Positions 2,395-19,905 of a stretch of 40,470 bases of DNA are shown here, one piece after another. Position 1 is the stretch's first letter; the number at the start of each line of letters is the position of its first letter. Position numbers and translations under genes: made by a program. A model generated the notes under the pieces. The model ran no database searches and was not told where the DNA came from. It saw nothing but the letters and a program-made list of their open reading frames with translations. The stretch comes from a virus, in the UHGV virus genome UHGV-0078430; one strand, 5' to 3'.

Positions 2395-2455
2395 AGGCTT
2401 AGTGTATTTTAATCATTTTTAACCAAGCCTTTGATATATAAGTGTTTTCTCTGCT

Positions 2456-2519
2456 AAGCGTGTTGTACGTAAATTCTATTTTTCAGTGTGGGTATTAGCT
2501 TTACAGATTTCACGTAGCA
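2456..2519 (-). promoter_or_regulatory. conserved upstream element, copy 1
   Basis: about 64 bp sharing blocks (tgctacgtgaaatct, atacccac, tttacgta, cacgctta on the minus strand) with a second copy at 4601-4663; lies upstream of ORF 1603-2394. Confidence 0.45.
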
Positions 2520-2530
2520 TTCGACTATTA

Positions 2531-4579
2531 TTAATCATCTTCTGGGAATGATGAACTTAATAGCGTAGCTTCTGCATATTGGTCGTAGATATTACTGCTA
2601 AAGGTCATAAAGCTGGTTTCATCTGGTTTAATGGCAACTTCACCACCAAGTGAAACTTTCACAGGCTCCTGAATACGTTTGCTCAAAGCACTAATTTCAT
2701 CTCTCAGGCTTTGGATATCCGTATTCGTTAATGCCGCATCTTGTCTCATGGTGATTAATTCTGGATGCTGGAAGTTAGCAAGATTCATAGCTGCACTACT
2801 AAACCAACCTTTAACATCGTCCATAGTGAACACTGGTTTAAGTCCAGACTCTTTAGCTAGCTCTGGTAATTTAGCTTGTGCTTCCATTCGTTCAGGTGTA
2901 GAAGCTAATCTCTCATAACCTGCATAGATAGCACTACCAGCTAATAACATATTCCCAAGATTAAACCTTGATGGTTTCCCGTTCTTTCTATTCACGTTAT
3001 CCGCTGTAGTATCAGCGACCTGACCTAATCTTGTGATAGCAGTCATAAGCCCGTAAATACTTCTGGTTACACCAACAACTTTATTCACAGCAATAACACC
3101 AGCCAAGACTTTTAAACTATTAATCAAGCCAGAACCTAAAGCATCAACTACTTTCTTTTGTTCATCGGTTAAACCACGGTAAGCTAATGTCACCTCATCA
3201 AAGAATGCTCTTACCCTGTAGCTGATATCAGTCAATGAATCCACACCACTTGACATAGAAGTCATGAGACTACCAAGAGATTCACCAAGACTTTTACCGC
3301 TTCCACCTAAACTATTTAAAAGATTGGTTAAGCTTCTTGTGAAATCTTGAAGACCATTTTCAGAACCTCTGAAGATACTATCAAGCGTGGTATTCCAAGA
3401 GTTTTTCAGGTTCCCTAGTTGTGCCTGTGTACTTTCTGAAATAGCTTTCCAGCCGCCTTTAGCGGTGATTTGTCTATTCAGTTCCTGAGTGACCTTCTGA
3501 AGAGTATCGGCAGATTTTAAAGCCCCCTTCTTCATGGCATCAAATAATTCCTGTTCAGTCTTTCCGGTTGCTTTAGCGAATACCTGAACCATACCAGGAA
3601 CAGCTTCAGCTAATTGCCCCTTAAGCTCTTCAGCCATAATCTGACCCTTACCAGCCATCTGTGATAATGCTGTCAGTGCTCGCTTAATCTCTTCTTCACT
3701 TCGACCCATTAAACGAGAATAGCCAATCATATTTCTAAAAAGTTCTTCAGAACCTTGAATACCCATAGATTCTTTAGCTGAAGCACCAAAACCAGCAAAC
3801 TGTGATTGCAGTTCAGCGATATCTAAACCCGTTGTTTGAGCTAATGACTTTGTGAAATCTTTTACTTGACCTGCATCTTTATCAAATACGAAATCAATAC
3901 TTCTTTCCGATGATGCACGTTGAAGGCCAACTTCCATTACTCGCTGATAAGCGGATAGTACAGCCTGAAAGCTGATAAATGCACCTGCTGCTCTAACCGC
4001 TGCTGAAGACAGGTTATCAAGGCTGCTAGCTGCTCTGTCACTATTAATGCTGGTGGATGTATGACCTCTGGCTTTAGCAATTGCTTCTCTGACTGAAGCG
4101 TTTAACTGAGCTAACTTCTCATTGAATTTTGAAGAATCCATTGACCCGGCTTTAGCAGATAGCCCGTAAAACTGACTCTTAATGTATTTCTCGACAATTG
4201 GGTTAAGGCCTTTTAGCTTGCTCATATTCGCTGAGTAAGCTGCTGTGATTGCTCTGTTTCCGCTAATTCGTGGCTGTCTTGGTTGTTTTGGAGGATTAAC
4301 AGTGTCATTAAATCTGGTGGTAAACTGGAAAGCTTTAGTATTTCTTGCTCTCTGTTCAATCTTGTCAAAGGCCTTATTAAACTTCCTTTCAAGTTGCCCT
4401 AAAGAACTTGTCAAATTACTATCAAGCTGTTTTGTATTAATCCTGAAACCTTTATTTAGGTTCTTTTCAATTCTTTGTGCTGACTGCAAAGCTGCCTTTT
4501 CAACTCTTTGCAGTCCCTTAATAACGTTCTCGCTGAAGCCTAGCTCAACGATAAAACTATCAACTTTAAATTGTGCCAT
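2531..4579 (-). CDS. phage tail tape-measure-like protein
   Basis: 682 aa, coiled-coil N-terminus, central region resembling tape-measure domain (GLDIAELQSQFAGFGASAKESMG ... ALSQMAGKGQIMAEELKGQLAEAVPG ... FAKATGKTEQELFDAMKKG), Gly/Ser-rich segment; assignment from recalled motif pattern. Confidence 0.6.
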   Translation of the reverse strand: MAQFKVDSFIVELGFSENVIKGLQRVEKAALQSAQRIEKNLNKGFRINTKQLDSNLTSSLGQLERKFNKAFDKIEQRARNTKAFQFTTRFNDTVNPPKQPRQPRISGNRAITAAYSANMSKLKGLNPIVEKYIKSQFYGLSAKAGSMDSSKFNEKLAQLNASVREAIAKARGHTSTSINSDRAASSLDNLSSAAVRAAGAFISFQAVLSAYQRVMEVGLQRASSERSIDFVFDKDAGQVKDFTKSLAQTTGLDIAELQSQFAGFGASAKESMGIQGSEELFRNMIGYSRLMGRSEEEIKRALTALSQMAGKGQIMAEELKGQLAEAVPGMVQVFAKATGKTEQELFDAMKKGALKSADTLQKVTQELNRQITAKGGWKAISESTQAQLGNLKNSWNTTLDSIFRGSENGLQDFTRSLTNLLNSLGGSGKSLGESLGSLMTSMSSGVDSLTDISYRVRAFFDEVTLAYRGLTDEQKKVVDALGSGLINSLKVLAGVIAVNKVVGVTRSIYGLMTAITRLGQVADTTADNVNRKNGKPSRFNLGNMLLAGSAIYAGYERLASTPERMEAQAKLPELAKESGLKPVFTMDDVKGWFSSAAMNLANFQHPELITMRQDAALTNTDIQSLRDEISALSKRIQEPVKVSLGGEVAIKPDETSFMTFSSNIYDQYAEATLLSSSFPEDD

Positions 4580-4600
4580 TGTTCATATTTCACCTCTGTT

Positions 4601-4663
4601 AAGCGTGAGCTACGTAAAAAATAATTTTTGGTGGGTATATCTGTTCAGGAGATTTCACGTAGC
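4601..4663 (-). promoter_or_regulatory. conserved upstream element, copy 2
   Basis: second copy of the 2456-2519 element, ends about 20 nt upstream of the tape-measure-like start codon; contains 7-bp inverted repeat gctacgt/acgtagc. Confidence 0.45.
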
Positions 4664-4789
4664 ACACATACAAAAAAGGGAGAAACTACCGAATAATATC
4701 GATAATCTCTCCCCGTGTTATAGATTCGATAGAACCTATCTCATACACCCAACCAATTCTATTAGATTCGATTAGAAGCTAATCTCAAA

Positions 4790-4999
4790 TTAATGCCTGA
4801 CAAGATAATGTAGTTCCGTTTCACCTATAATTTGAGCATCGGAAGGGATACGGTCGATACACCACTTTGGAATCTTGCGTGTTTTTGGTTTGCGTGAGGT
4901 GATAATTTGATGTTTGGTTTTAATTCTTAAGGCTGGCTTAGTTTGTAACTTTAAGTTTTCACAAACAGACCGGATAGTCTCTAAACGTTCTTCAAACAT
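4790..4999 (-). CDS. hypothetical small basic protein
   Basis: 69-aa ORF between two larger minus-strand genes; no recognisable motif. Confidence 0.3.
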   Translation of the reverse strand: MFEERLETIRSVCENLKLQTKPALRIKTKHQIITSRKPKTRKIPKWCIDRIPSDAQIIGETELHYLVRH

Positions 5000-5022
5000 T
5001 AATCACCTCTTTTAATTCATAA

Positions 5023-5733
5023 TTAAAGCACCTTTGAGTACTTCGTTGAAATCTTCGTTAACTGCTCAATATCGGCTTGCATAGCAATCTTCTTCTGCGT
5101 TTCATATCCACTAACAAGCTCTTTCATGCTATCAAGTTCTTTTCTAAGTTTTTGCTTTAACTTATCCAGTTTACCGGAATAATGCTTAGTCAAATTAGCT
5201 TCAGCTAACTGAAGAATCTCTTCGTCTGTCTTATCAGTCATCAGGATAAATTGACCAGAACCCCTTAATGCTTGTCTGACATCAATTAACCGGAACCCTT
5301 CAGGGATACTTTGAAGAACTTTAGGAACGTCTTCAATCGCTGTACCAAAACCATCATTAAAGTTTCCTTCATAATAGATAAACGGGTTTGACTTAATCTC
5401 GTAAGCAATATCATATTCTGAAGGTTTCGAGGTTTCTTCGAAGTTCTTAACAGCATCGTAAGCAATATCAAGTCGAATACGCTGTTCTTTTAGCCGTGGG
5501 TAATATTCACGCTCAAGCTCAAATAGTGCTTCAGTTTTGCAAACATCAGGCATCTCCTGAGGTTCAGGATACACAAAGATGGTTGTTTTTGGTGACATCT
5601 TTAGCGATTGCTCAAGCTTAATTCTTTCATCGTGTTCTTTACGCTGGATAGTGATAGCTGGATGTTCAGTCTGTGGTGACCAGTCCCCGAAGCTATCAAT
5701 CTTTCTGCCGTTAATAAATAAATCATTTGTCAT
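5023..5733 (-). CDS. hypothetical protein
   Basis: 236-aa ORF with Lys/Glu-rich coiled-coil-like C-terminus; no recognisable catalytic motif. Confidence 0.5.
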   Translation of the reverse strand: MTNDLFINGRKIDSFGDWSPQTEHPAITIQRKEHDERIKLEQSLKMSPKTTIFVYPEPQEMPDVCKTEALFELEREYYPRLKEQRIRLDIAYDAVKNFEETSKPSEYDIAYEIKSNPFIYYEGNFNDGFGTAIEDVPKVLQSIPEGFRLIDVRQALRGSGQFILMTDKTDEEILQLAEANLTKHYSGKLDKLKQKLRKELDSMKELVSGYETQKKIAMQADIEQLTKISTKYSKVL

Positions 5734-5940
5734 TATAACTTCCTCTAAGTGTGGTTATTTCTTAATAGAGCACCTTCAACGCCAATACACTTAGAAGATG
5801 ACTTAACGATTTATTAAAGATGCTCTATTAAGAAAAGCCCTAAACATAGGTTCATCCTTATCTGTGAAGGGCTTTGGAGTTTGCTTATAACGTTAACGGA
5901 GTTTCAGGAAAAACTTTCTTTAAAAGCTCTGTTTAAAAAC

Positions 5941-5973
5941 TCTTAAAGAAACGCCCTAACTCATGATTAGGGC
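5941..5973 (-). terminator. putative terminator between upstream 4-gene operon and downstream genes
   Basis: stem gccctaa/ttagggc with 7-nt loop; on the minus strand followed by gtttcttt. Confidence 0.35.
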
Positions 5974-6304
5974 AAAGCTGTAAGGGTTCAATAATGAATG
6001 ATTAAGCACTTTTTGATATATAGCCTATCTAGTGGGCTAAATAGGCCATGTAGCGAAAAGCATTGCACCTTTCAGAATGTTCGGTATAGAACATACCTCA
6101 CCAACTCAGAATATCCATCCATCCATCGGATTATTGAAAGAAAAATAAGAGAGAATTACTCTCCCATAATTAAAATTATGTCATGCTTAAGGTTATTTGT
6201 CAACAGCTTTTTAACAGATTGGTAACATTAATTCTTATTTACCGTGTTACCTACCCAGCAACCAACAAATAAACCCAAAGCTGTCCAAGCAATTATTAAG
6301 CCCA

Positions 6305-6649
6305 TTAATGCACCACCTTCGAATCCGTCACCAAAATATTGTCAGCGTACAAAATTGCTATAGCTGCCTTGAGATATCCTTCAGGGCTAACGCTGTATTT
6401 GTTCGTTTGCTCGATAACCAATCTTTTCATGTTGCTGTCTTTAATTGGTAGCATCATTCGAGGCTCGTTAAACTCCACCGACTGAATAAAGTCAGAGATG
6501 CTTTCCGCATTATCAGCCATTAACTCTAACAACTTATCAAAGTCAATGCTAACACCTACATCAGTGAAAGCCTGAATCATCATAGCGGTGTCGTTATCAA
6601 CCATAATTTGCATTGGGTAATTGTTCATTTTTAAATTCCTATAAAACAC
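6305..6649 (-). CDS. hypothetical protein
   Basis: 114-aa ORF, last gene of a co-directional 4-gene cluster; true start may be internal Met (MNNYPMQ). Confidence 0.45.
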   Translation of the reverse strand: MFYRNLKMNNYPMQIMVDNDTAMMIQAFTDVGVSIDFDKLLELMADNAESISDFIQSVEFNEPRMMLPIKDSNMKRLVIEQTNKYSVSPEGYLKAAIAILYADNILVTDSKVVH

Positions 6650-6765
6650 ATCTTAAATCTGCCAAAATAGCCATTCTGAGGCCAGTAACCATGCGGGTTA
6701 CAGAGGGAGTGAGACACCTTAGTAATAGGGTAGCTCATCTTTGAGTCTCACTCATTCTTACAGGC

Positions 6766-7152
6766 TTACACAGACGCTTTAATCTTGTAGTATTGACTGC
6801 GTGATAAACCGTATTTCTCAGAAATATAACTTTGTGATTGTCCTTTGGTGATTGCATCAATGATTAAATCTTTATCGTATCTTTTACCGTTGGCTTTGTG
6901 CTTGTCGCCACTTTTAATAGAGTTGAAATTCTCAATTAATTTAATGGCGTCTTTAAGGTCGTCTTCGTAAGCATAATCAAAACCCCTGATAAACTCGAAA
7001 TCACCATTATCTTTTTGTGCTTCAGTCCAGATATCAAATCTTGAGGCTAATTGCTGGTGGGTAAACTTGGGCTTATTGGTTTGTGTTACGTCTTTCCAGA
7101 CTTTACCGTCAAATCTTACCAAATGGTCACGATGTTTATAAAAGTCATACAT
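6766..7152 (-). CDS. hypothetical protein with C-terminal helix-turn-helix
   Basis: 128 aa; C-terminus ISEKYGLSRSQYYKIK resembles HTH of resolvase/terminase-small-subunit/transposase-type DNA-binding domains. Confidence 0.5.
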   Translation of the reverse strand: MYDFYKHRDHLVRFDGKVWKDVTQTNKPKFTHQQLASRFDIWTEAQKDNGDFEFIRGFDYAYEDDLKDAIKLIENFNSIKSGDKHKANGKRYDKDLIIDAITKGQSQSYISEKYGLSRSQYYKIKASV

Positions 7153-7430
7153 TAAACCTCCATCGCTAATTTGTGAATTTTAATGCTTAGTAACCTTGCT
7201 AAATCCAGTCCAAAAGCATTTAAAGATTTCAGATTATCAAGGTCGGCTTGCTCAATCCTGATATGGTGTCTTGCAGCCTCTAAGCGGCTATTAAGCAAAT
7301 CTTGTTCGTTAATATCACGGTTAATTGCAAGCTTCATCACTGCTGAGTGTGGCAGACCTGTAATGTTTTTGATTCGGTTCAGTTCATCAAAGGCTGTCTT
7401 TGTAACTCTGGTTAAAGTGTGTTTGCTCAT
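7152..7430 (-). CDS. hypothetical protein
   Basis: 92-aa ORF; start overlaps stop region of upstream gene and stop abuts next gene (translational coupling). Confidence 0.45.
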   Translation of the reverse strand: MSKHTLTRVTKTAFDELNRIKNITGLPHSAVMKLAINRDINEQDLLNSRLEAARHHIRIEQADLDNLKSLNAFGLDLARLLSIKIHKLAMEV

Positions 7431-7431
7431 T

Positions 7432-7989
7432 TTAAAATTCCTCTGTAACTAAATACGGGTCAAACTCGAAATCTGGTTGCTCGTTTTCCATTGGCTCAAT
7501 ATTTCCAACGGCAATATGATGCTCAACAACACCAATTAACTTTGCGCACATTACAGCAAGCAAAGCGCAATATTTATCGCTTGGTAATTCATGGCTAAGT
7601 CTGGTTGCTTGACGCTGAAGATGATTTGTCACGGTGGCTGAGTTAATTTCATCAAGACTTCGCAGTAAATAAAAAACCTTCTGGTTGTATTTCTGGTGAC
7701 CCTCGCTTCTGCAAAATCCAATAAAAATATCATCAAGCTTGCTCGGTAGTTGCGCGTAGCTGTCAAAGCTAGCCAGATAATTCTTGATGCTGTTCTTTGT
7801 TGTTTTGCGTGTTGGCATGTAACGGTTCCTCGGTGTAATTGCCCGAATTACTTCGTCAATGCCTTTGCGTTCTTTCTTGGTAAACTTGGGTAATTCGTGG
7901 CTGGTGGGGGAGTTTGTGTAAGCGTAGGAGTTGTGCTTGTTGCGTTCTCTTGATGCCTGAAGCATCGCTCTAAATTCTGCGTCTCTCAT
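7432..7989 (-). CDS. hypothetical protein
   Basis: 185-aa ORF, first gene of the 4-gene cluster; divergent promoter region upstream (7990-8112). Confidence 0.5.
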   Translation of the reverse strand: MRDAEFRAMLQASRERNKHNSYAYTNSPTSHELPKFTKKERKGIDEVIRAITPRNRYMPTRKTTKNSIKNYLASFDSYAQLPSKLDDIFIGFCRSEGHQKYNQKVFYLLRSLDEINSATVTNHLQRQATRLSHELPSDKYCALLAVMCAKLIGVVEHHIAVGNIEPMENEQPDFEFDPYLVTEEF

Positions 7990-8076
7990 TCATATTCTGA
8001 CCCTCATAAGATGTTATTATTCTGTTAACTTATATAGACAATACTAGCATTTTCAAAGACTAATGTCAAGCATTTT

Positions 8077-8106
8077 TTAACATTTTATTAACATCTGTGG
8101 TATAAT
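8077..8106 (+). promoter_or_regulatory. putative sigma70 promoter with extended -10
   Basis: TGgTATAAT at 8098-8106 with ttaaca -35-like hexamer about 17-18 bp upstream. Confidence 0.4.
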
Positions 8107-8286
8107 GGTTCTATGGGGAGAGTAAAATATAAAGGCGTGGCTATGATTTGGTCACATGGTTATTGCATTGCACACAGACCTCTTCAATCGCTCTGTAACG
8201 AGTTAAACAGCCTCTTAAGGTCAACTATAAGGTCAGGTACTTTTTTGTGTCAGAATGCGATTGAGAGCGTCTTACAAGGAAAACTA

Positions 8287-8463
8287 ATGGTAAATCTCCC
8301 TCCTGAGCTGGGGTCACCTGATGTGTGGGCTGGTGGAGGTGTGGGTCTGTTCGCAGGTCTGTTACTTCGCTACGTCCTCGTCAGGGTGCTTGTTGTCTTT
8401 AGACTGTTCGGTCGTACATGGACGCTTGACCTTAAGGATAACAACCACACAGACCCCCGTTAA
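8287..8463 (+). CDS. small hydrophobic (single-pass membrane-like) protein
   Basis: 58-aa ORF (MVNLPPELGSPDVWAGGGVGLFAGLLLRYVLVRVLVVF...) preceded by AAGGA RBS; sits in a locally GC-rich patch inside the AT-rich island, downstream of a strong promoter; both overlapping frames are open so coding status is uncertain. Confidence 0.3.
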   Translation: MVNLPPELGSPDVWAGGGVGLFAGLLLRYVLVRVLVVFRLFGRTWTLDLKDNNHTDPR

Positions 8464-8476
8464 ACTCCCTTCAAAA

Positions 8477-8515
8477 CCCCCTGTACGAGATGGTATAGGG
8501 GTATCTTTAGCATTT
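8477..8515 (+). terminator. weak terminator-like hairpin
   Basis: cccct/agggg stem with 14-nt loop followed by T-rich tatctttagcatttt. Confidence 0.25.
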
Positions 8516-8583
8516 TGTGCTATCTATTAAAAAACAGCTTGACATAACCGGAAAGCTGTATCTATCAAGTATTCACCTCTCTG

Positions 8584-8755
8584 ACAGTAATTGCTAAAAG
8601 TTCTTATTTTTCAATAAGTTGTAATTAGCCATATATAGAGAACTGACAAGCCTCTTCACAGTTAACTCTGAAACCTTAACAGTAAATTCTAAAAGTTCTT
8701 ATTTTTCAATGAGTTGTAATTAGCCAATATAAAGGACTGACAAGACCCTTCACAG
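8584..8755. repeat. tandem direct repeat, 2 copies of about 78 bp at 95-bp period
   Basis: 8584-8661 and 8679-8755 align along their length (acagtaa.t.ctaaaagttcttatttttcaat.agttgtaattagcca...gactgacaag.c.cttcacag). Confidence 0.7.
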
Positions 8756-8783
8756 AGAACTTCCTGGACTCACTAAGATACAA

Positions 8784-8990
8784 GGCGATAACCCCAGAAA
8801 GGGAGAGCCACCTTCTTAACCGACTTCTTAAACAATCTTTACAGACCCCGTTCACCAGTCTCAATATTTTTATTTCTCGCTCTTCGTTTGTTGCTCGTTT
8901 CTATTATTGAGGGGGTTTGAAAAACCTCTGTAAAATAACCCTTCCAGTAAAAAGCGAATAACCCCAGACAGGGGAAATCGCCTCTTTAAC
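8784..8990. repeat. two copies of about 36-bp element
   Basis: gcgataaccccagaaagggagagccaccttcttaac (8784-8820) and gcgaataaccccagacaggggaaatcgcctctttaac (8954-8990). Confidence 0.4.
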
Positions 8991-9021
8991 ATTCTCGTAA
9001 TCAGTGCTCTATATGAGAATT

Positions 9022-9684
9022 TTAGCCCAACCTTTGAGCAATCCTGTATGACGTGCTCAGAGGCATTCTGAGAGCATCTGCAATGCACTTAATGGGTTTG
9101 CCTTGCCTGTATAGTTTTATGAAGCTGTCGAGCGTCTCAGGTGGGTAAATGGTGGGTCTTCCTCTTAAGCCTCCTCTGTTAATGATGGTTAACGGTAATA
9201 GCGTGTCAGCACAGCAAACCATCTGCGTAATTTCATGCTTACGTGGTTCTTTTTTAAAAACAACGACTGCACTTGGAAACGGTGAACGAATAACAAGCCT
9301 GTTATGGCCTGCTGGTGGAAGGTATTTAACTGCACGATGAAGAATACGGATTTCATGGCAAAGCGGGTTTGTGAAGATGTGCTTAAGCCAGTATATGGTT
9401 TGGGGTCGGTACGGTATCAGGAATACCGCTAAATCTGCTTCAGACGCTTTTACGAGGAATGTTTTAGTGTCGCTGTATGGTGGGTTACAGAATACCTTTT
9501 CACCAACCCATGACTGATTGTGGATATCATCGGTGAACCGTGGCAACAATGCGTCATGCTCAGTTGCAGCACCATCCAGACTGAAACTAAACTCACGGTG
9601 TAAGTTCTTGAATAATAAAAATGGAGTTCTCCAGTAATCAGAACCCCCATGATGTTTCCCGATTAAAATACACTCAATTGACAT
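9022..9684 (-). CDS. phage-type DNA N6-adenine methyltransferase (Dam family) with C-terminal HTH
   Basis: FCNPPYSD catalytic motif, DGAATEHDALLPRF upstream motif typical of phage Dam-like MTases; C-terminal HTH-like tail (LSTSYRIAQRLG). Confidence 0.8.
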   Translation of the reverse strand: MSIECILIGKHHGGSDYWRTPFLLFKNLHREFSFSLDGAATEHDALLPRFTDDIHNQSWVGEKVFCNPPYSDTKTFLVKASEADLAVFLIPYRPQTIYWLKHIFTNPLCHEIRILHRAVKYLPPAGHNRLVIRSPFPSAVVVFKKEPRKHEITQMVCCADTLLPLTIINRGGLRGRPTIYPPETLDSFIKLYRQGKPIKCIADALRMPLSTSYRIAQRLG

Positions 9685-10001
9685 AAGAAATAAAAATTTT
9701 TATTGCAATCACTCTTGACAAGGTTTACTCTCTTTTAAGAGATACTTAACAGGCTTTCTAAACGGATATCCTTTCTGGGATATCTATCTCTTATCTTAAA
9801 AGTCTTTATAGATACTTTAAAGATATCTGTATTAAATCTGTACAGTAACTTTTCAGACTCTGAAAATTTTTATAAAATCGTAATAGCCCCTCTTCAAATT
9901 CCCCTTCTAAAAATCTTCGAAAATATCTATCACAGGTCTATACCTGCTAAGTACCCGCCACACCAGCTATGTGACCCCCTTTGCAGAATTTTAAAATATC
10001 T

Positions 10002-10766
10002 ATGAGGTTTATTCGATAGAGGTTGGTACAAGCCCAACTAACCGAATCAACTATTGACTTTCTTCATAGTATCTGTTAACTCCACCTCAAGAAACCTTCA
10101 TCACACTTCAAAGCATCTATCAAGAAGATTTAACCTATCAATAGCTGTAACATTTTATAGTTCTGTGAAGTCCTATCCAGTTTTCTCTGTAACAGACACA
10201 AACTTCTGTGACCTTATGTATCAATGACTTACAAGACATGCTCTCAAGGTGCTGTATAGCCTCTTATCAGCCAATACACAAAACCCTTATAAATCAGTAC
10301 TGATACATATACAGTGTGTTTTTAACATAATAGCTGTTTTACGCACTAATCGTGTTCTACATGAAATCTGTATAGATATTAAGGTGTCTGTAAGTGATTT
10401 TTTAAGAGGAACTACGAAGGAACTATGAGGTTGATTCCTAGAACTAACCGAATCAACTATAACCATCACCTCCTAACTTTCACATAGCTGATTGTTATCT
10501 CTTGCAACTGTAACGTATGGTGACCAAACATCTATATATCGTTATATAGCCCTGTATATAGCACTTTTCTAGGAGTCTGGAGAGGGACGACTAACACGAT
10601 ACAGTTTACCCTGAAAAGAGACTTCACAGATTCTTTATATATTTCAATAAGTTAGGGTAAAAAGAGACTATGCTGATACTGCATAGAATCTGTGTAAAAC
10701 TGCTTAGATACTTGGGAAAATGCCTTTAAATTGCATAGTCATAGGGGTTGGAACAAGCCCAACTAC
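10002..10766. repeat. family of three related 25-55-bp elements in an ORF-poor region
   Basis: 10002-10056 atgaggtttattcgatagaggttggtacaagcccaactaaccgaatcaactat; 10424-10460 atgaggttgattcctagaactaaccgaatcaactat; 10741-10766 ataggggttggaacaagcccaacta; core gttgg-N7-ccaac dyad. Confidence 0.5.
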
Positions 10767-11054
10767 ACCTGATATTGTCCTGTAATTAACAGGTCTCTTA
10801 GAAAACCGAATAGACTTCATTCAAGGGTCATTGAAGTCATAATCATTTCAGTAGAAAAACCAGGTCTCGATTTTAAATGCAAATAGCAATCATATTCAAT
10901 AAGGCAAGACGATCAGGATCAGTGAAAATGTCATTTTTGGCGTAATTACCCTTACTTTATGCATGGCCTTAACAAAGACATCATCTTTCCGTTGCAGATC
11001 TTCGCCCTTTCAAATAACGTACTTTACAACTTTCCCGAACAAGGAGTTGTGCCC

Positions 11055-11351
11055 GTGTTGTATGTTATTTACGCTCAAGACAAAGCTGATAGCCTCGAAA
11101 AACGCCTTTCCGTTCGTCCGGCACATTTAGCACGTTTACAGTTACTGCATGATGAAGGTCGTTTGTTGACAGCTGGTCCAATGCCAGCGGTAGACAGTAA
11201 CGATCCAGGGGCTGCGGGATTTACTGGCTCAACCGTTATTGCTGAATTTGAATCGCTGGAAGCAGCTCAGGCCTGGGCCGATGCTGACCCGTACGTAGCG
11301 GCAGGAGTCTATGAACACGTTTCAGTGAAACCATTTAAGAAAGTGTTCTAA
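11055..11351 (+). CDS. yciI: YciI-like protein
   Basis: 98-aa product from GTG start with AAGGAG RBS 8 nt upstream; sequence (RPAHLARLQ...GRLLTAGP...ADPYV..GVYE) matches my recollection of enterobacterial YciI family; the longer ORF from 10959 is probably not the real start. Confidence 0.75.
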
Positions 11352-11415
11352 TTTATTAGAAATTTGCACTTAAATCAAAAAGTTACGGACAATTCAACCA
11401 CCAATCAATAAATTA

Positions 11416-11450
11416 AAGGGCACATTAAAGTACACAATATTTGTGCCCTT
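11416..11450. terminator. hairpin between convergent yciI and invertase genes
   Basis: 9-bp stem aagggcaca/tgtgccctt with 17-nt loop, T-rich flank; weak as intrinsic terminator. Confidence 0.3.
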
Positions 11451-11469
11451 CTCTGTTTCTTTCCCGTTA

Positions 11470-12018
11470 TCAGCTAGCTGGAAACTTTTTATACAGAGTT
11501 GAGAGCCCTACTCCATACGTTTTTGATACGCTTTGTCGTGATTCACCGGTTGCCATCCGCTCCCCCATTTCCCGCCATTGCTCATCCGTGAACTTAGGCC
11601 TGCGACCACCAACTCGCCCTTTTGCCCTGGCTACGGCCAGCCCTGCTAAGGTACGTTCGCTATTAAGATCAGATTCATATTGTGCTGCGGAAAGGATGTT
11701 ACGAAAGTTATAGCGGCCGCTGGCTGTTTTGAGATCCACGCCATCGGTAATACTGCGGAAGTTGATACCCTTTTCCTGTAACTGCTGGAACATCAACAGC
11801 GCATGCAGAACGTTGCGGCCTATCCTGTCCAGCTTCCAGACCACCAGTTCATCCCCCGGCTGCATAGTGGCGATCAGCCGTTTTAGAACCGGCCGATTCG
11901 ATTTCCTCCCGCTGGCATGCTCTTCAAAAATTTTCTCACAACCCGCTGACTTGAGCGCCGTTAGTTGCAATTCAGTGTCCTGGTGGTTTGTTGATACTCG
12001 GGCATAACCGTAAATCAT
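11470..12018 (-). CDS. site-specific DNA invertase (Pin/Gin/Hin/Cin family small serine recombinase)
   Basis: MIYGYARVSTNHQ catalytic-Ser N-terminus, VVWKLDRIGR motif, C-terminal HTH (VGLSTLYKK); start trimmed to internal ATG at 12018 with AGGAG RBS 7 nt upstream. Confidence 0.9.
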   Translation of the reverse strand: MIYGYARVSTNHQDTELQLTALKSAGCEKIFEEHASGRKSNRPVLKRLIATMQPGDELVVWKLDRIGRNVLHALLMFQQLQEKGINFRSITDGVDLKTASGRYNFRNILSAAQYESDLNSERTLAGLAVARAKGRVGGRRPKFTDEQWREMGERMATGESRQSVSKTYGVGLSTLYKKFPAS

Positions 12019-12021
12019 GGG

Positions 12022-12048
12022 ATTTCTCCTGTTATGAAAACAGGAGAA
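12022..12048. other. 27-bp inverted repeat overlapping the invertase RBS
   Basis: minus strand tttctcctgtt-ttcat-aacaggagaaa, 11-bp arms with 5-bp spacer immediately upstream of the invertase start codon. Confidence 0.3.
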
Positions 12049-12077
12049 ACGGCGAAGCATCACCAGATTTTTGATGG

Positions 12078-12103
12078 TTATAAAAAAGGTTGGTTTGGGA
12101 AAC
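12078..12103. other. candidate hix/gix-like recombination site
   Basis: ttataaaaaaggttggtttgggaaac resembles my recollection of 26-bp hix/gix sites (TTATCAAAAACC..GGTTT..); only one copy found. Confidence 0.3.
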
Positions 12104-12152
12104 ACGAAGTATGAATGTAGTGCACCACATAAATTTCGAATCTTTGGCAAGC

Positions 12153-12183
12153 AAAACTGGATCACTAATAGTGATCCAGTTTT
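12153..12183. other. perfect 31-bp palindrome
   Basis: aaaactggatcact-aat-agtgatccagtttt, 14-bp arms; downstream of tail-fibre stop; terminator or protein-binding site. Confidence 0.4.
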
Positions 12184-12251
12184 AAATACCAATCGAAGGT
12201 TAAATGGTGGGCTTGTTGAGCCTAGAGCCTGTACATAAATTTTTTATTTTA

Positions 12252-14687
12252 CTATTCCATCTCGTCCATTCTCTTCATGACCATTGCGATATTCCGTCGT
12301 TGAAGCGCCGCCTCCATCACCAGAGCCTCCTCATATCGGATGCCGTATTTCTCACCGACAACGTAAGATTCAGCTATCAGCTTTTCATGCGCTGGTTCGG
12401 TCATGTTCCACAGCTCTGGTGAAACCTGTTTCCCATCGTCATCATAAACCGCTGGCACGACTTCATACACAGCAGGGACTGATTCATAAACAGCGGGAAT
12501 GGTTTCTTCTGGGTCGTAGCAAAAGAAAGCAAAACTATGAGGATCAAGGCCGTGGCGTTCAAAAGCCTCCTTGGCACGCTGAGCAATAATTCCAAAGTGC
12601 CAACGAGCACCGTCATCACCCTTGGCCTCTATCCTGTCGATAAACTGGAACTGCACGAAATCTACTTCCGCCCAGGCGTCCAGGATAATATCGGCATACG
12701 AGTCTTCCATCAGCCTGGGATCGGATACCGCCTCTGGCTCGAGGGACCCACGTGCCAGCATGACTGGACGTGATTTTTGTAGCTCATCGGATGTAACGGT
12801 GAACGCCGTCTGAGTGAATCCGCCAGCCCATATGGATGAGCTTGTCCCGACGCTATACGTGTTAGTCGCAACCGGCTGAACATTCCCGGTCACTCGAAGA
12901 GGCGAAAATACATCACTGACCGTAGCCGCAAATCGGGCTAACTCAGTACCCGGCGAATCCTCTGTAGAACCAGAATAGAGACGAACGCCGTTTTTACTGA
13001 ATATCGTGGTCGCAGATAAATCGTTAGCACCCTTTATCACGCCAATTCCAGCCTGCCAGTCCGCAGAACTGGGGCCTGTGACATCAGTGATGCTGTGCAG
13101 AGTTCCGCCCATCCGCCCGAACGGATCTGTAACGTTATCAAGATGCACCCCTCTTATCGTTATTTTACCAGTACTGCCGCCACCAGATACAAACCCTACA
13201 GGGCAATCCTTAAAAGTTACTCCACTTAACTTCGCGTATTTCCTGTTGATGATTGCGGCTCTGCTAACGTCTCTGCATACCAGCCCATTAATTACCGTAT
13301 CGTCCCCATTACCATACTCTCGGCCAGTCGATGTGCCACTGGTTGAGGCGGTGACAGATAAGCCATCTTCCGCGTTGGCTATCTGAATGTTAGAACCCCG
13401 GCAGTGCCGCTCTTCTATCCAGACGCCGTTTTTAAGTCGTCCGCCTTCATCACCGATAGCAACGATATTATTAAAATTAACAAATGGTGCCTTAATGTGC
13501 AGTCCGATTAACGTTGTGTAATCAGCACCAAACCGGTTTTGAACGACCGTTATGTCAGATACGTTTGCCCACGCACTCGATCCTCTTCCTTCTAAACTAC
13601 CAATCGGGCCTTGCTTGATACGAACACCCGCCCCAGGACAGCCAACGTCTCCAAAGTCAGAAACGTAGACATTAGATACTTTTGGCGCAATAGACATAAC
13701 ATCAACACCAGCCCAGGGGTTATTTGGCTCATCAAGCTGGCCGAAGTTAAATACGAAAATGTTATTAAGATGGAATGCGCGGCTGACAGATCCGTTATCT
13801 TTAATATCAATCCCATCAGCGCCGGTATTTTCTGACCAGTAACCATCAATAACGCACCCTTTGTAGCCGCCGTTCTGCAAACCCAGCCCATAGTGGGAGC
13901 AATTTTTAACCTTTAGGTTGTTGATGCTGAGACCCTCAATCCCCGCGCCGACCACCCCCTCTGTTTGTCTTACATAAGACGCAGACGTGAAATCTCCATG
14001 ATAGTTACCGTCAATGCAGATGTTGTGCAGACCTACACCATGAACTTTCGTAATGCCGTTTTGCAGCGGAGCCTTGGACCACTGGATAACGCCGTATGCC
14101 GAGTTGGTTGCATAAGCCTGAATGGTGGTTGAATTCCACCCCTGCCCACACAGGATTACGTTGTCGTAAGGAATGCGAAGAGCTGCAACGCGGATGGTCG
14201 CGGTCGAAGAGCTGAAATCAGACTCATCCATATGAACCTGATAAAGGCTTTTGGTGAAAACAATTCTTCCACCGCCAGCAGCGCTTAGTTCTGCTGCTTT
14301 TTGCATAATTTTATCGGCGTTAGATTTAGCGACAGTGATCGATACCAATCCACTTACAACACCAAATGATTCGGCTGTAACTTGAATACCTTCTAATCCA
14401 AGGTTTGTGGTAATCGCTGTCGCCAGCTTTGCCACCAGTCCATCAACGTCACCATCATCGAGCGCGTCCAGTTCGGCGTTCGCGATAAACTGCCCCAGTA
14501 CAGCCGCCATCGTCGACGGTTGGCGCAGCGCTTTACTGACCTGTGCGCTGGATGCTTTACCCGAGGAGAATCCTTTCTTCAGTGCGGTTAGCGTCTCCCA
14601 TTCCTCCTGCGAGGTAACATTTGCATTAGCATCTGTCGCAAACGCTTTAAAATCATTAGTTCCAGCCATTAAAGTAATCTCCCCCAT
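12252..14687 (-). CDS. tail fibre / tailspike protein with beta-helix-like central domain
   Basis: 811 aa, Gly/Asn/Val-rich repetitive central region typical of parallel beta-helix tailspikes, C-terminal tandem PAVYE repeats; last gene of tail module next to invertase. Confidence 0.7.
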   Translation of the reverse strand: MGEITLMAGTNDFKAFATDANANVTSQEEWETLTALKKGFSSGKASSAQVSKALRQPSTMAAVLGQFIANAELDALDDGDVDGLVAKLATAITTNLGLEGIQVTAESFGVVSGLVSITVAKSNADKIMQKAAELSAAGGGRIVFTKSLYQVHMDESDFSSSTATIRVAALRIPYDNVILCGQGWNSTTIQAYATNSAYGVIQWSKAPLQNGITKVHGVGLHNICIDGNYHGDFTSASYVRQTEGVVGAGIEGLSINNLKVKNCSHYGLGLQNGGYKGCVIDGYWSENTGADGIDIKDNGSVSRAFHLNNIFVFNFGQLDEPNNPWAGVDVMSIAPKVSNVYVSDFGDVGCPGAGVRIKQGPIGSLEGRGSSAWANVSDITVVQNRFGADYTTLIGLHIKAPFVNFNNIVAIGDEGGRLKNGVWIEERHCRGSNIQIANAEDGLSVTASTSGTSTGREYGNGDDTVINGLVCRDVSRAAIINRKYAKLSGVTFKDCPVGFVSGGGSTGKITIRGVHLDNVTDPFGRMGGTLHSITDVTGPSSADWQAGIGVIKGANDLSATTIFSKNGVRLYSGSTEDSPGTELARFAATVSDVFSPLRVTGNVQPVATNTYSVGTSSSIWAGGFTQTAFTVTSDELQKSRPVMLARGSLEPEAVSDPRLMEDSYADIILDAWAEVDFVQFQFIDRIEAKGDDGARWHFGIIAQRAKEAFERHGLDPHSFAFFCYDPEETIPAVYESVPAVYEVVPAVYDDDGKQVSPELWNMTEPAHEKLIAESYVVGEKYGIRYEEALVMEAALQRRNIAMVMKRMDEME

Positions 14688-15349
14688 GCGCCGTCATCAA
14701 AACCGGCGATGTATTCGTTATCCATGTCAAATCCAAAGAATTTTGTTCCTTCGGACGGTGTTTCGACCGAGGGTGTTTCAACGCCGCCAGCCCATACACC
14801 AGCAGCTTTAACGGTGAGATAACCCTGTTTGATAGCGGCTATCAGTTCGAGTGACACATCAGAAATATCAGTCTCGGGAAAAACCCAGACCGATATCGTC
14901 ATGTCCTGGTTGTCGACAATTTGCATCCTCAGGCCTGAGCCTGCAGTCGCAGCGTCAAGGATGGGAGGCAGAGAGTCGTTCCGACCGTCCCAGTTGTTGA
15001 TAGCGATTTTCGCTTTCAGAATGATGCGGTACGTCTCATCGCTTAGCGTCGTATAGCCAGAATCAGGATCATATGGCCCTTGCCAGATGCCCTGGTCATA
15101 CCCAAGCCCGTCAGTGTCCCAGCTGAAATAAACTCCGCTAATTGGCTGGCTGACTATGCGACTGCGTCCGATCCACAGACCGAGGATGTCGAGCTGTACA
15201 CCGACAGCAGTATCGATATCGAAGGCTGTTATAAGCCCTGACATAGTGCTGGACACATCAATCAGCGGGCGGGTGCTCAGATCTATATGGTCAAAAAAGA
15301 GTGGCTTGGTAGCGTGGTAGTTAGTGATCAGTTCGGTGTATTTGCTCAT
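14669..15349 (-). CDS. baseplate protein (P2 gpI / Mu gp48-like by position)
   Basis: 226 aa, between baseplate J-like gene and tail fibre gene as in P2/Mu gene order. Confidence 0.5.
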   Translation of the reverse strand: MSKYTELITNYHATKPLFFDHIDLSTRPLIDVSSTMSGLITAFDIDTAVGVQLDILGLWIGRSRIVSQPISGVYFSWDTDGLGYDQGIWQGPYDPDSGYTTLSDETYRIILKAKIAINNWDGRNDSLPPILDAATAGSGLRMQIVDNQDMTISVWVFPETDISDVSLELIAAIKQGYLTVKAAGVWAGGVETPSVETPSEGTKFFGFDMDNEYIAGFDDGAWGRLL

Positions 15350-16545
15350 GAGGTCACCGTGATACTGATATTCGCGGTGCTACAGGACGCTAAAGCATCA
15401 TAGGCAATATCAATGTTTGATGCCGATACGCTGCCAGACGACTTACCGATCAGCAGGTCGGTAATATCGTAATAGCGGGCATTCCCGCCGCTCACAACGC
15501 CGAGGTTTGCCGGGGAATAAATACGGCTCAGCAGAACGTCGTCGCCAATTGTTAGGCCATTTATATAATCGGCAACAGCCTGTTTAATCTGCTCGCCGAT
15601 TTGAGAGGTATAGCCGGTAAAAACTTTCAGGGTAATGGCTACGAAAATTGGCACATCGGTAGAGCGCGAAAAACTGATGACGTGAGGATTACCATAAGTA
15701 TCCGGCACTGTGACAGAAGTTTTACCGTAAGTTGCGGTTCCCTGCCCTTTATTCCCCCTGATGGTCTGGGCTATCTCGGTAACATCCCCTCCATCGACGA
15801 TGGCGGAAATAGAGTGTGGCGGCAGCCCGTTGCTGTCGGTTGCCCCAGTGTCGTTCTCATATAGTTTGTGACGTGTCACGCCAGCAACATTAGCGATAGC
15901 ACCGTCGACACCTTCAAACGGTGTGATCGATGGTAGCGCGACGCTTTGCCCCTGCCGAATGCGCAGCTCTGCGTCGGTTTCGGCTGGTGAACCGACAGTA
16001 GCCGCAACTGGATTGGTTACCGACACCCAACCTCGGGTCGGGGTGTTGATAGTGGTAATAGTCCCGGCCAGCGCCGCAACCGAACCGCTATTCGCACATG
16101 TGGCCGTCACCAGCACAGTACCATCAACGCCGATCGCCACACTCGCTGGAAAATTCCAGATAATGCCGTTTTTATCCCGTGCGGAGCCATTCGTGATAGT
16201 CGTGCCTGCCGTACCGGTTAACAGAAGGTCAGCAGTAGAGTTTGTCGCTACTTTTCGCGTGATCCCGTTAATTTTCACATTGCTGCTAAGCGCTGCGGCC
16301 TGCGCTGTCGTCGGTGAAAAAGAGTTGTAGATCCCGATAGCGGTGTTGTTAGCGTCATGCACGGCAAGAGCCACCAGCGCGACCATCTGCCCGTCTTTGC
16401 TGTCTGGTTCGAGGTAGGCATCACTACCGTAAATCTGCCTGAAATAGCTGGTCAGTGTATCTAGGATTGTCTGGTAATCAGGCGCACTAATCCCCTGGGC
16501 GGTTACCGTTGCCGATAGCCCCAGCGTGTCGAGGTTCAAAGCCAT
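15346..16545 (-). CDS. baseplate J-like protein
   Basis: 399 aa; position after W-like gene and before I-like gene; N-terminal region resembles baseplate J family. Confidence 0.65.
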   Translation of the reverse strand: MALNLDTLGLSATVTAQGISAPDYQTILDTLTSYFRQIYGSDAYLEPDSKDGQMVALVALAVHDANNTAIGIYNSFSPTTAQAAALSSNVKINGITRKVATNSTADLLLTGTAGTTITNGSARDKNGIIWNFPASVAIGVDGTVLVTATCANSGSVAALAGTITTINTPTRGWVSVTNPVAATVGSPAETDAELRIRQGQSVALPSITPFEGVDGAIANVAGVTRHKLYENDTGATDSNGLPPHSISAIVDGGDVTEIAQTIRGNKGQGTATYGKTSVTVPDTYGNPHVISFSRSTDVPIFVAITLKVFTGYTSQIGEQIKQAVADYINGLTIGDDVLLSRIYSPANLGVVSGGNARYYDITDLLIGKSSGSVSASNIDIAYDALASCSTANISITVTS

Positions 16546-16899
16546 TTATGCCTCGCTTGTTACAGTCGTCTGGCCGTAGATTGTGTCAATGGAGGAAGTG
16601 AAGGTGACGCGACGGCTGGTGCCGTCATAATTGGTATCGAAGGAAAGAATCGACAGAACGCCCGGTGTATCCTGTATGCGTTCGCGTATAGCCAGGATGT
16701 AGACATCTGATCGCTGCTTCCCAAGCACTGACTGAACATACGGCGTGCCTTCCGTCAGATCGAGAAACCACTGACCGCGCCACAGCTCGAAACGGGTTTT
16801 TACGGCCTGGGCGACACATTCCGGACTGTCGATAAGGAAAGTATCGTCACCCTGGCCGAAAGTGTAATCGCCTTCAGTATCTTCGCGACGGTATCGCAT
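16546..16899 (-). CDS. baseplate wedge protein (gpW / Mu gp46-like)
   Basis: 117 aa, between V-like and J-like genes. Confidence 0.55.
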   Translation of the reverse strand: MRYRREDTEGDYTFGQGDDTFLIDSPECVAQAVKTRFELWRGQWFLDLTEGTPYVQSVLGKQRSDVYILAIRERIQDTPGVLSILSFDTNYDGTSRRVTFTSSIDTIYGQTTVTSEA

Positions 16900-17639
16900 T
16901 ATTGCGGCCCTCCGGTAGTTCCCCCGCCAGTCTGTACTCCGCCATGTTTATGCGTGGCGACACTGATACCAGAAGCTGTTACGTCATTCGTTACCGTCAC
17001 CGGCCCAAGCATCGTCGCAGTACCGCCGCTTTCGCCCATTCCCTGAGACAAGTTGCCATTAATCGTTACGTTGCCGTTCAGCGTGATAGTCGGGGATGTG
17101 ATTGTCGTTCCACCTTCAGCCGTAGCTGTAAGCTGGCCCGGTGTTTTAATGGTGATGTTATGTCCTGCGGCGACTTCTACAAACGCCGCACCATCATCGG
17201 TTCGCAGCTGCGCGGCGCTGGTACTGATACCGCTGATTTTCCGTGCTTGCGACTGCGGGCCAACGATGGCGAACGCATCAGATAAGTCATGCTGGCGCGG
17301 GTCGACGGTCTCCTGAACGCCGCCGCTCTGCCACCAAAAATCGATGCAACGGTCAGCAAAAATCAGGAGGCACTCGTCGCCTTCTTTTACCGGAAAGGTC
17401 AGCGTGCAACCGCCGCCGCGCGGGAAGATGACCGGCACATCCACCAGCGGTTTTAATTCGGTGGATCCATCGCCAACAATACCGCGTAGCGCCACCTCTA
17501 CTGTGCAGGTAACAGTCTCAGGATCGAACGACTGAATGATGCCGGGCATCGCTACGCGCATCTGGGTCGACACCGAATCGGCAATGGCCTGCGCGGTCTG
17601 CTGCTCACCGCCGATCTGTGATTGAGTTGGAATTGGCAT
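16899..17639 (-). CDS. baseplate assembly protein V-like (central spike)
   Basis: 246 aa; Gly/Thr-rich C-terminal region with HKH motif (SVATHKHGG) reminiscent of spike-apex metal-binding motif; position after hub gene. Confidence 0.65.
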   Translation of the reverse strand: MPIPTQSQIGGEQQTAQAIADSVSTQMRVAMPGIIQSFDPETVTCTVEVALRGIVGDGSTELKPLVDVPVIFPRGGGCTLTFPVKEGDECLLIFADRCIDFWWQSGGVQETVDPRQHDLSDAFAIVGPQSQARKISGISTSAAQLRTDDGAAFVEVAAGHNITIKTPGQLTATAEGGTTITSPTITLNGNVTINGNLSQGMGESGGTATMLGPVTVTNDVTASGISVATHKHGGVQTGGGTTGGPQ

Positions 17640-17650
17640 AAAACCCCCAT

Positions 17651-17674
17651 AAAAAAACCAGCCGAAGCTGGTTT
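17651..17674 (-). terminator. Rho-independent terminator
   Basis: minus strand stem aaaccagc/gctggttt with 4-nt loop followed by U-run (plus-strand A7 at 17651-17657); lies just upstream of V gene. Confidence 0.45.
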
Positions 17675-17861
17675 GGTATCAATTATCTCTTAGTAACTAA
17701 GCTACATCAGTGTGAAGTAAGGCTTTTCCGCTGCAATGGCACACATTCACAAGGTGTATTAGGATATGTTTGCAACAAGTAAGCATTGAAAATCAATTTC
17801 AGCCATGAAGCCGCCATAGAGTGGACCTGCACCATCGCATTATTGACTACAGGAGTAACAA

Positions 17862-18152
17862 ATGGGATTTAGATTTCGTAAAAGAATCCGGATTGCGCCC
17901 GGACTCGCGATCAACATTAGTAAAAGCGGAGTAAGCACTTCAATTGGTGGTAAAGGTTCCACCATTAACATCGGGAAAAAAGGCGTAAAGATGACAAATG
18001 GCCTTCCCGGCACGGGGCTGTCGCATACCACTAACCTTTACTCTCCCGGGAAATCGACAGAAAAAAAACAACTTACTCATAAGCAAAAAATAATTAGAAA
18101 CATCCTGTTCGTAATTATTGTGTTTATTATAATTAAAGCTCAATATTTTTGA
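17862..18152 (+). CDS. DUF4236-like protein with C-terminal hydrophobic helix (moron)
   Basis: N-terminus MGFRFRKRIRIAPGLAINISKSGVSTSIGGKG...GLPGTGLS matches my recollection of the DUF4236 signature; opposite strand to surrounding tail genes; lower-GC local context. Confidence 0.6.
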   Translation: MGFRFRKRIRIAPGLAINISKSGVSTSIGGKGSTINIGKKGVKMTNGLPGTGLSHTTNLYSPGKSTEKKQLTHKQKIIRNILFVIIVFIIIKAQYF

Positions 18153-18157
18153 CGCAT

Positions 18158-18176
18158 GCCCGCCTATCTGGCGGGC
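18158..18176 (+). terminator. terminator hairpin between convergent moron genes
   Basis: gcccgcc-tatct-ggcgggc followed by tatttt. Confidence 0.4.
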
Positions 18177-18520
18177 TATTTTACTTTTCGGCAGTCGTAT
18201 GTTGCATACTGACGCGGCGAATCCATGCTGGCTTGCAACCACTGTGCGTTGAGAATGGCTTTGCCGTTTCGATTGATGTACTCAAGACCAACCCATCTTC
18301 CAGGCTGATCGGTAGCCATACGCCAATCCATCTTGATATTGTTATAATCGCCTTTGTTTTTCAGGAAGGTGATTTTTTGCATTTCTGGCTTTGCGCCATT
18401 GATTCTGGCTAAGCCATCATCTGCCCAATGGATTTTAAAATCACCACATTGCTGATCCGCAAAAGCGGGTGCTGATATAAGCACCGCGAACACGGTAACA
18501 GTGCAAAGTAAATGTCTCAC
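18176..18520 (-). CDS. secreted/periplasmic protein of unknown function (moron)
   Basis: 114 aa with N-terminal signal peptide (MRHLLCTVTVFAVLISAPAFA), two Cys in mature part; inserted between baseplate genes. Confidence 0.5.
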   Translation of the reverse strand: MRHLLCTVTVFAVLISAPAFADQQCGDFKIHWADDGLARINGAKPEMQKITFLKNKGDYNNIKMDWRMATDQPGRWVGLEYINRNGKAILNAQWLQASMDSPRQYATYDCRKVK

Positions 18521-18532
18521 GGCCCCACCTCA

Positions 18533-19597: not shown

Positions 19598-19599
19598 TT

Positions 19600-19905
19600 C
19601 TACTCCTGCACGAAAATGAGGTGGCTGTATGTGCCGAGGTTGGTTTTGGTGGGCTCGTCTGGTGCGCCCTTATCGGTCGCCACCACCAGCGCACCATCAA
19701 TGCCAAGCTGTGGAAATTGTCGTAAAAGGTTCACGCCGGTCAGTAGAGGTACGCCAGAGAGAAGCGCGGCACCGCCGCTATCCATCACGTCCATAATCCA
19801 ACCAGCCGCATCGCGCCAGATGATCCTGAGCGTATACGTAGTATTGCCCAGCAAAACGCGGAACTGCTGATTGTCAGGAGAAAGCGGTATTTCGTTAAAC
19901 TGCAT
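19600..19905 (-). CDS. tail-associated protein, unknown function
   Basis: 101-aa ORF tightly packed in tail operon. Confidence 0.45.
   Translation of the reverse strand: MQFNEIPLSPDNQQFRVLLGNTTYTLRIIWRDAAGWIMDVMDSGGAALLSGVPLLTGVNLLRQFPQLGIDGALVVATDKGAPDEPTKTNLGTYSHLIFVQE

Follow-up and report, generated by a model that had tools for sequence, protein, structure and literature searches.

A resident yciI gene very probably flanked by two unrelated site-specific integrations, an island at the tonB start codon and a prophage at the phi80 attachment site

In the window, by which we mean the whole 40,470-nt stretch of DNA that was analysed, the gene yciI stands on 532 bp of core chromosome (10821..11352) with an AT-rich island on its left and a prophage on its right (Table 1). 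An earlier note made from the letters of this DNA had described a 98-aa YciI-like gene with its own ribosome binding site and GTG start, and this description holds: the protein matches the Pfam family YCII (PF03795) with E = 4.1e-33 (114.2 bits against a cut-off of 24) over residues 1-95, covering profile positions 1-95 of 95 and hence the full-length domain, and AAGGAG is found 8 nt 5' of the GTG. The annotated length of K-12 yciI, 297 bp, agrees with the GTG start at 11055; position 10959 is the ATG of the longest open reading frame (130 aa) in the yciI frame and not the GTG start. The gene does lie at a compositional step, as the same note had it, with a GC content of 0.35-0.37 at 9501-11000 versus 0.52 at 11501-12000, and mobile-element genes are indeed present on both sides, a Resolvase/HTH_7 invertase to the right and the large serine recombinase, tape measure and Dit-like genes to the left.

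Table 1. Features of the window (positions are those of the window, position 1 being its first letter; a dot marks features given without strand)
Feature	Position	Strand	Remarks
AT-rich island, ~10.8 kb	1..10820	.	GC 0.35-0.44
Fur-box-like 19-mer	15..33	-	13/19 matches, perfect 11-nt core AATGATAATCA; in island DNA facing tonB
Promoter-like site GTGATA-18-TATCAT	48..19	-	overlaps the Fur-box-like 19-mer; faces tonB
Large serine recombinase, 506 aa	50..1570	+	Resolvase (PF00239), Recombinase (PF07508) and Zn_ribbon_recom (PF13408) above cut-offs
Dit-like tail/baseplate protein	1603..2394	-	Pfam Dit_like, E = 3.8e-19
Tape measure protein, 682 aa	2531..4579	-	Pfam TMP_3; PHROG 4036
Dam-type adenine methyltransferase	9022..9684	-	weak C-terminal HTH_7-like tail; PADLOC 'orphan methyltransferase' models
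Non-coding patches	9745..10000	.	77-86% identity to Si3 32-92 and 77128-77291
tonB start remnant	10817..10831	-	ATG ACC CTT GAA TGA (M T L E stop), by comparison with K-12 tonB
Island att core TCAAGGGTCATTG, 13 bp, right-hand copy	10821..10833	.	contains the orphaned tonB ATG (minus strand, 10831..10829)
Promoter-like site TTGAAT-18-TAAAAT	10870..10899	-	promoter scan; native tonB upstream region, now facing the island
Shine-Dalgarno AAGGAG	11041..11046	+	8 nt 5' of the yciI GTG, read from the sequence
yciI, 98 aa	11055..11351	+	GTG start at 11055; stop TAA at 11349-11351
phi80-type att core ATTTAAGAAAGTGTTCT, 17 bp	11333..11349	+	last yciI codons; prophage/chromosome junction
Prophage	11350..40470	.	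runs off the right end of the window; phi80 att/pin module and myovirus-type structural genes
phi80-type attP arm	11350..11469	.	118-bp gap plus the last two stop-codon bases; base-for-base as in phi80 JX871397
IHF site AATCAAAAAGTTA	11373..11385	.	mapped from the annotated IHF feature of phi80 JX871397
Hairpin, 9-bp stem	arms 11416..11424 and 11442..11450	.	followed by a T-rich run; -17.4 kcal/mol, z = -2.0
pinL-type DNA invertase, 182 aa	11470..12018	-	Resolvase E = 3.6e-39, and HTH_7
Tail fibre or spike gene, 811 aa	12252..14687	-	C-terminal Peptidase_S74 chaperone domain

When the whole window was compared with the K-12 locus (L003) by blastn, colinearity was restricted to 10821..11352 (99.8% over 533 columns), a segment that takes in 11 nt from the start of tonB, the whole of yciI and the intergenic DNA between the two genes. 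The coding sequence of yciI is identical to that of K-12, the sole change falling at 11350, where the stop TGA has become TAA. The gene order in K-12 is kch - yciI - tonB, with yciI and tonB divergent, and a synteny comparison of the kind that had been proposed finds this tonB / yciI / kch neighbourhood, element insertions aside, in K-12, in the relative G3/10 and in four further genomes (L007-L010). A megablast search with 10400..12300 returned a match in 5423 of the 5426 complete E. coli genomes, as did a separate query with only the 3' half of yciI (5423 of 5426); most of the yciI-positive genomes carry neither the island nor the prophage. By these comparisons yciI is a resident core chromosomal gene, the orthologue of E. 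coli yciI. Its own upstream region and coding sequence are retained, and for this reason normal expression of yciI in the double-insertion arrangement is most likely.

On the right, the chromosome gives way to prophage DNA at a phi80-type attachment core, ATTTAAGAAAGTGTTCT. This 17-bp sequence is single in K-12 and occurs at both prophage ends in G3/10, where the second copy lies ~43 kb off, just past the tyrosine integrase gene and directly before K-12 sequence toward kch. In the 40,470-nt window it occurs once (0 occurrences expected by chance), so the integrase end of the prophage lies past position 40470, beyond the window as the earlier note had expected; in the relative G3/10, whose junction is 100% identical, that end is present. 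The record of phage HK225 annotates exactly ATTTAAGAAAGTGTTCT as attP, with the remark "similar to yciI", and the phi80 record JX871397 carries an annotated 'attP core' that is offset by 3 nt from ATTTAAGAAAGTGTTCT. The published location of the phi80 attB is within the 3' end of yciI (PMC13449921, PMC5727415, PMC11148124).

The nucleotide identity of the region 11330..12100, a stretch that includes pinL, is 94.6% to phi80, 99.6% to HK225 and 97.0% to mEp237, and G3/10 is 100% identical to the window over 10821..12100. The hairpin within the attP arm occupies the place of the native K-12 hairpin 3' of yciI and may serve as the yciI terminator in lysogens. The earlier note had expected a prophage attachment junction in the 118-bp gap (11352..11469) between the yciI stop (11351) and the stop of the invertase gene (11470). 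A prophage junction does exist; its place is another one, since the crossover core falls in the yciI reading frame and the gap is phi80 arm DNA throughout, which puts the junction in the 3' end of the gene and rules out a junction inside the gap. Among the 5426 complete E. coli genomes, 150 have the same junction of yciI and attP arm.

This organization is what would be expected if recombination had taken place between the attP of a temperate phage with a phi80 integration module and the classical attB of phi80, whose core consists of the 17 bp at the end of the yciI frame. Such an integration would restore an intact yciI in which the stop alone is altered, from TGA to TAA, and would swap the native 3' flank of the gene and its native terminator hairpin for attP-arm DNA with a hairpin of its own. 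At the far end of the prophage we would predict early genes, a phi80-type tyrosine integrase and a second ATTTAAGAAAGTGTTCT followed by GAATAGAG, and then kch. Integration of a prophage into the 3' end of yciI at att-phi80 is a mechanism that is already known, and for that reason the sandwiched position of yciI is ordinary. The att-phi80 site, adjoining tonB, is a textbook integration hot-spot, one that phi80 transducing phages and CRIM plasmids have made use of. The point for annotation is that the 3' end, the stop codon and the terminator of yciI in such lysogens are to be read as phage-supplied.

On the left, homology to K-12 starts at 10821, inside tonB. The 13-bp sequence at this position, TCAAGGGTCATTG, is the reverse complement of CA-ATG-ACC-CTT-GA and corresponds to the start codon of tonB together with the three codons after it. 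It is single in K-12, flanks the island on the left and on the right in five E. coli genomes (L001 and L007-L010) and occurs once in the 40,470-nt window, with 0 occurrences expected by chance; no second copy of either ATTTAAGAAAGTGTTCT or TCAAGGGTCATTG was found within the window. The annotation of those five genomes shows an intact tonB of 720 bp, with 90 bp between it and the start of the recombinase gene. In Citrobacter sp. ANG330 (L013) the left-hand copy of TCAAGGGTCATTG likewise lies beside tonB, and the locus as fetched ends before the right-hand junction. The location of the island junction on the tonB start codon was not part of the earlier note.

Judging from these relatives, position 1 of the window would be 42 bp past the tonB start codon, which places the left end of the island and tonB itself ~40-50 bp outside position 1. 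The left island-tonB junction and the integrase end of the prophage both lie outside the window and are, for this strain, drawn from close relatives. We propose that the ~10.8-kb island was inserted by its own large serine recombinase at the 13-bp sequence across the tonB start codon. The complete tonB frame would thereby have been moved to the far left of the island, behind island DNA, and the native tonB upstream region with a 4-codon stub would have been left attached to yciI. The sequence predicted to the left of position 1 is, ~42 bp out, CAATGACCCTTGA then TTTA and a complete 239-codon tonB. The short frame at 10817..10831 is accordingly best annotated as a scar and not as a gene.

Joining the right and left arms of the island gives a reconstructed attP whose junction can be written GACTTCAT-TCAAGGGTCATTG-TATTGTAGC. 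On the two sides of its central G|T, 15 of 25 half-site positions agree, perfect CCGAATAG/CTATTCGG arms among them. As reconstructed, this partly palindromic attP has the layout expected for a large serine recombinase. The left junction of the island, always at the tonB start codon, is present in 225 of the 5426 E. coli genomes (~4%). For the right junction the count is 87, this end of the island being more variable than the left. The attP junction had 0 matches in viral contigs and in metagenome contigs and no full-length match in the 5426 E. coli genomes; none of the three yielded an excised circle, absence from assemblies being compatible with excision. In the literature we found neither the island described nor any recombinase site located at tonB/yciI or on the tonB start codon.

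The prophage downstream of the phi80-type module has a different relationship. Similarity to phi80, HK225 and G3/10 ends at position 12100, and Citrobacter phage Omnitron matches the region 14700..39600 at 97% identity and 91% coverage; this Omnitron-like region encodes myovirus-type baseplate, sheath and head genes. By these matches the prophage is a mosaic, a phi80 att/pin module joined to a non-phi80 body. G3/10 carries a related prophage of ~43 kb with a tyrosine integrase at the end adjoining kch. Between the two parts of the mosaic, 12101..14394 has no counterpart in G3/10 or in the COL60J prophage. A palindrome with 24-nt arms is found at 12144..12192, and a tRNA-Asn (GTT) gene lies within the prophage at 36997..37071 on the minus strand.

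For the pinL-type invertase, 11400..15400 was searched for paired inverted crossover sites that would enclose an invertible segment, and none were found. G3/10 has an invertible tail-fibre segment, and the same place is taken here by the single 811-aa fibre gene, which stands where G3/10 and COL60J prophages have their invertible tail-fibre cassette. With no inverted-repeat pair and with the invertible segment replaced, the invertase appears to be an orphan, which is also the annotation of pinL in phi80, and we treat it as such.

The island itself has a small set of recognisable genes. Its recombinase matches PHROG 95, an integrase family, with E = 2e-79; its relatives among species-representative genomes were limited to Citrobacter sp. 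ANG330, and none were found in IMG/VR. The same island architecture is present between tonB and yciI in five E. coli loci (L001, L007-L010) and in Citrobacter (L013). In Felixounavirus Si3 the gene next after that of the tape measure protein encodes a full-length counterpart of the Dit-like protein (70% amino acid identity); at the nucleotide level the two genes agree at 83% over 524 bp. Homologues of the Dit-like protein were found in 299 of 50,697 phage records and belong, among the matches listed and by the organism counts, to FelixO1-like phages (85-90 kb) and Erwinia-infecting relatives. The tape measure protein resembles that of Si3 at the N-terminus (45% identity) and in the centre (32%).

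The resemblance to FelixO1-like phages extends to non-coding DNA. The patches at 9745..10000 match 253 phage records, nearly all of them FelixO1-like, in unannotated DNA, and one of the matched Si3 regions is a 1.8-kb stretch free of open reading frames and dense in 11-bp and 33-bp repeats. Some variants of the island have an AP2-family gene instead of the Dam-type methyltransferase. Six open reading frames of the island (o69, o236, o114, o128, o92 and o185) had no match in Pfam, PHROGs, NCBIfam, PADLOC or PDB sequences, and the AlphaFold model of o236, computed without an alignment, was unusable at a pLDDT of 45. A scan of 8000..11500 against Rfam gave nothing above threshold. No replication or packaging genes were recognised in the island with Pfam, PHROG, NCBIfam, PADLOC or PDB sequences.

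The gene content of the island raises the question of whether it is still a functional element. Between island variants all ten tested reading frames have a dN/dS of 0.06-0.45 at a dS of 0.1-1.8, which indicates that the reading frames are under purifying selection between strongly diverged variants. Gene order and the size of ~11 kb are moreover maintained across the E. coli and Citrobacter variants. Both observations speak against the reading in which the island alone is a decaying AT-rich prophage remnant without present function, inert and persisting vertically and horizontally. That reading draws on the two tail genes being all that Pfam and PHROG recognise of a virion, with no capsid, terminase or lysis genes found by either, and on the lack of an excised form in viral contigs, metagenome contigs and E. 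coli assemblies. We regard decay as a rather doubtful account of the island.

Another possibility is that the island is a living integrative element functionally tied to virulent FelixO1-like phages, either as a satellite or through interference with tail assembly. Its tape measure and Dit-like genes and the iteron-like non-coding patch would then derive from virulent FelixO1-like myophages, and the island may ride in such phages or may sabotage the assembly of their tails. As in satellites, an integrase is found together with a tie to a specific helper phage, namely the recombinase on one hand and, on the other, a Dit-like gene, a tape measure gene and non-coding patches that are FelixO1-like only. 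No description of a FelixO1 satellite was found in the literature. We put this interpretation forward tentatively, as a conjecture with less than even odds. FelixO1-like phages are used in typing and biocontrol, and the island would carry practical weight if it interferes with these phages or alters the regulation of tonB.

The regulation of tonB is of interest in its own right. The island cuts tonB off from its native upstream region, which stays beside yciI and contains the TTGAAT-18-TAAAAT site, presumably the known Fur-controlled tonB promoter. In the island DNA that now faces tonB, a Fur-box-like 19-mer and a promoter-like site overlap (Table 1). Five Fur-like sites in the window score at least 13/19, and the promoter scan returned no excess of sites over shuffled sequence; the Fur-box-like and the promoter-like site are both weak consensus matches. 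Uniform conservation among island variants extends over the 90 bp that separate tonB from the recombinase gene, and conservation is therefore not specific to the Fur-box-like site. We hypothesize that the insertion placed tonB under island-borne, possibly Fur-responsive, control, in other words that a promoter swap kept iron control.

A terminator-like hairpin with a T-run, one of a chance-level number of hits, lies at 10686..10668 on the minus strand, ~135 bp inside the right end of the island, in the orientation that would end transcripts coming from the orphaned tonB promoter. We also considered that the native tonB promoter drives island genes; this idea is weakened by the same hairpin, promoter and hairpin both being chance-level consensus matches. 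Effects of the insertions on the expression of tonB and yciI are what we infer from this arrangement. TonB energises iron uptake as well as the entry of several phages and colicins, and ~4% of complete E. coli genomes carry the island directly before tonB, severed from its native promoter. If any part of the locus merits further work, it is the island at the tonB start codon.

Taken together, we consider it about 95% probable that two unrelated site-specific integrations flank a resident chromosomal yciI. Each element occurs alone in other genomes, which makes the insertions independent: in the island-only genomes (L007-L010) yciI is directly followed by kch, and the prophage with tonB directly beside yciI is seen in G3/10 and many other genomes. 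The double arrangement, scored as at least 80% of 10400..12300 covered, is found in 4 of the 5426 genomes. The junction sequences, the empty site, the single-occupancy genomes and the identity to phi80 were all observed directly, and the enzymes named above would have carried out the integrations. Of the two possibilities raised by the earlier note, the one in which both elements inserted beside a conserved chromosomal gene agrees with the presence of the gene in 5423 of 5426 genomes, with the K-12 neighbourhood and with the genomes that have a single element. The sandwich is a sliver of core chromosome between two occupied attachment sites and adds nothing new about yciI.

Recurrence of the same double arrangement in four genomes is what one would also expect if island, yciI and prophage formed one composite element moving as a unit. 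This is very improbable: each element comes with a recombinase and a pair of direct repeats of its own, each is found alone at the same site in many genomes, their counts differ (150 versus 225 genomes) and the segment between them is ordinary K-12-like chromosome. Even less credible is the other possibility of the earlier note, that yciI is cargo of one element (a phage moron or an island passenger), for although the gene abuts both elements at the GC boundary and has a phage-supplied stop codon and 3' flank, synteny and prevalence refute it, with a K-12-identical coding sequence, a neighbourhood conserved in relatives, a match in 5423 of 5426 genomes of which most have neither element, phage genomes (phi80 and HK225) that hold the 17-bp core only and no yciI gene, and island-only genomes that retain yciI beside kch.

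The reading of two independent integrations around a resident gene can be placed next to known systems. YciI is the same 98-aa protein as K-12 YciI (b1251, PF03795), from a gene with the same GTG-start length and the same upstream region; the K-12 gene differs in its TGA stop and native 3' flank, in place of the TAA stop and phage-derived 3' flank seen here. The right junction resembles att80 of phage phi80 (Lula) in having the identical 17-bp core and the identical attP arm, IHF site included, and the adjoining pinL invertase region is 94.6-99.6% identical in phi80 and HK225. The chromosomal position between yciI and kch is shared with phi80 and the other lambdoid phages of the phi80 att type, HK225, mEp237 and mEpX1. 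The body of phi80 is unlike that of the prophage here, whose structural genes are myovirus-type and Omnitron-like. The invertase has in common with the Hin/Gin/Pin/Cin switches a small serine recombinase with a C-terminal HTH_7, and differs from them in that no inverted crossover pair surrounds a tail-fibre segment here (11400..15400).

Large serine recombinases are exemplified by the integrases of phiC31, Bxb1 and A118-type phages and by the Vibrio PLE integrase. The island shares with elements of this type the Resolvase, Recombinase and zinc-ribbon domains, a short core common to attP and attB, an attP that forms an imperfect palindrome about its central dinucleotide, and insertion in the 5' end of a gene. 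It differs from them in its target, the tonB start codon, for which no description was found in the literature, and it differs from the phages among them in having no phage capsid or lysis genes that we could recognise. Another parallel is offered by satellites that parasitise virulent phages, such as Vibrio PLE with its phage ICP1. The two islands have no sequence relationship; in the one described here no replication or packaging genes were recognised, and no excised form of it was found in contigs or assemblies. Shared with such satellites is a small integrated island, with a recombinase, whose only phage-like genes and part of whose non-coding DNA resemble a single group of virulent myophages. 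By this analogy it is conceivable, though on balance we think it unlikely, that the island is an undescribed phage-parasitic or anti-phage element of Enterobacteria, the counterpart in E. coli and Citrobacter of the Vibrio PLE.
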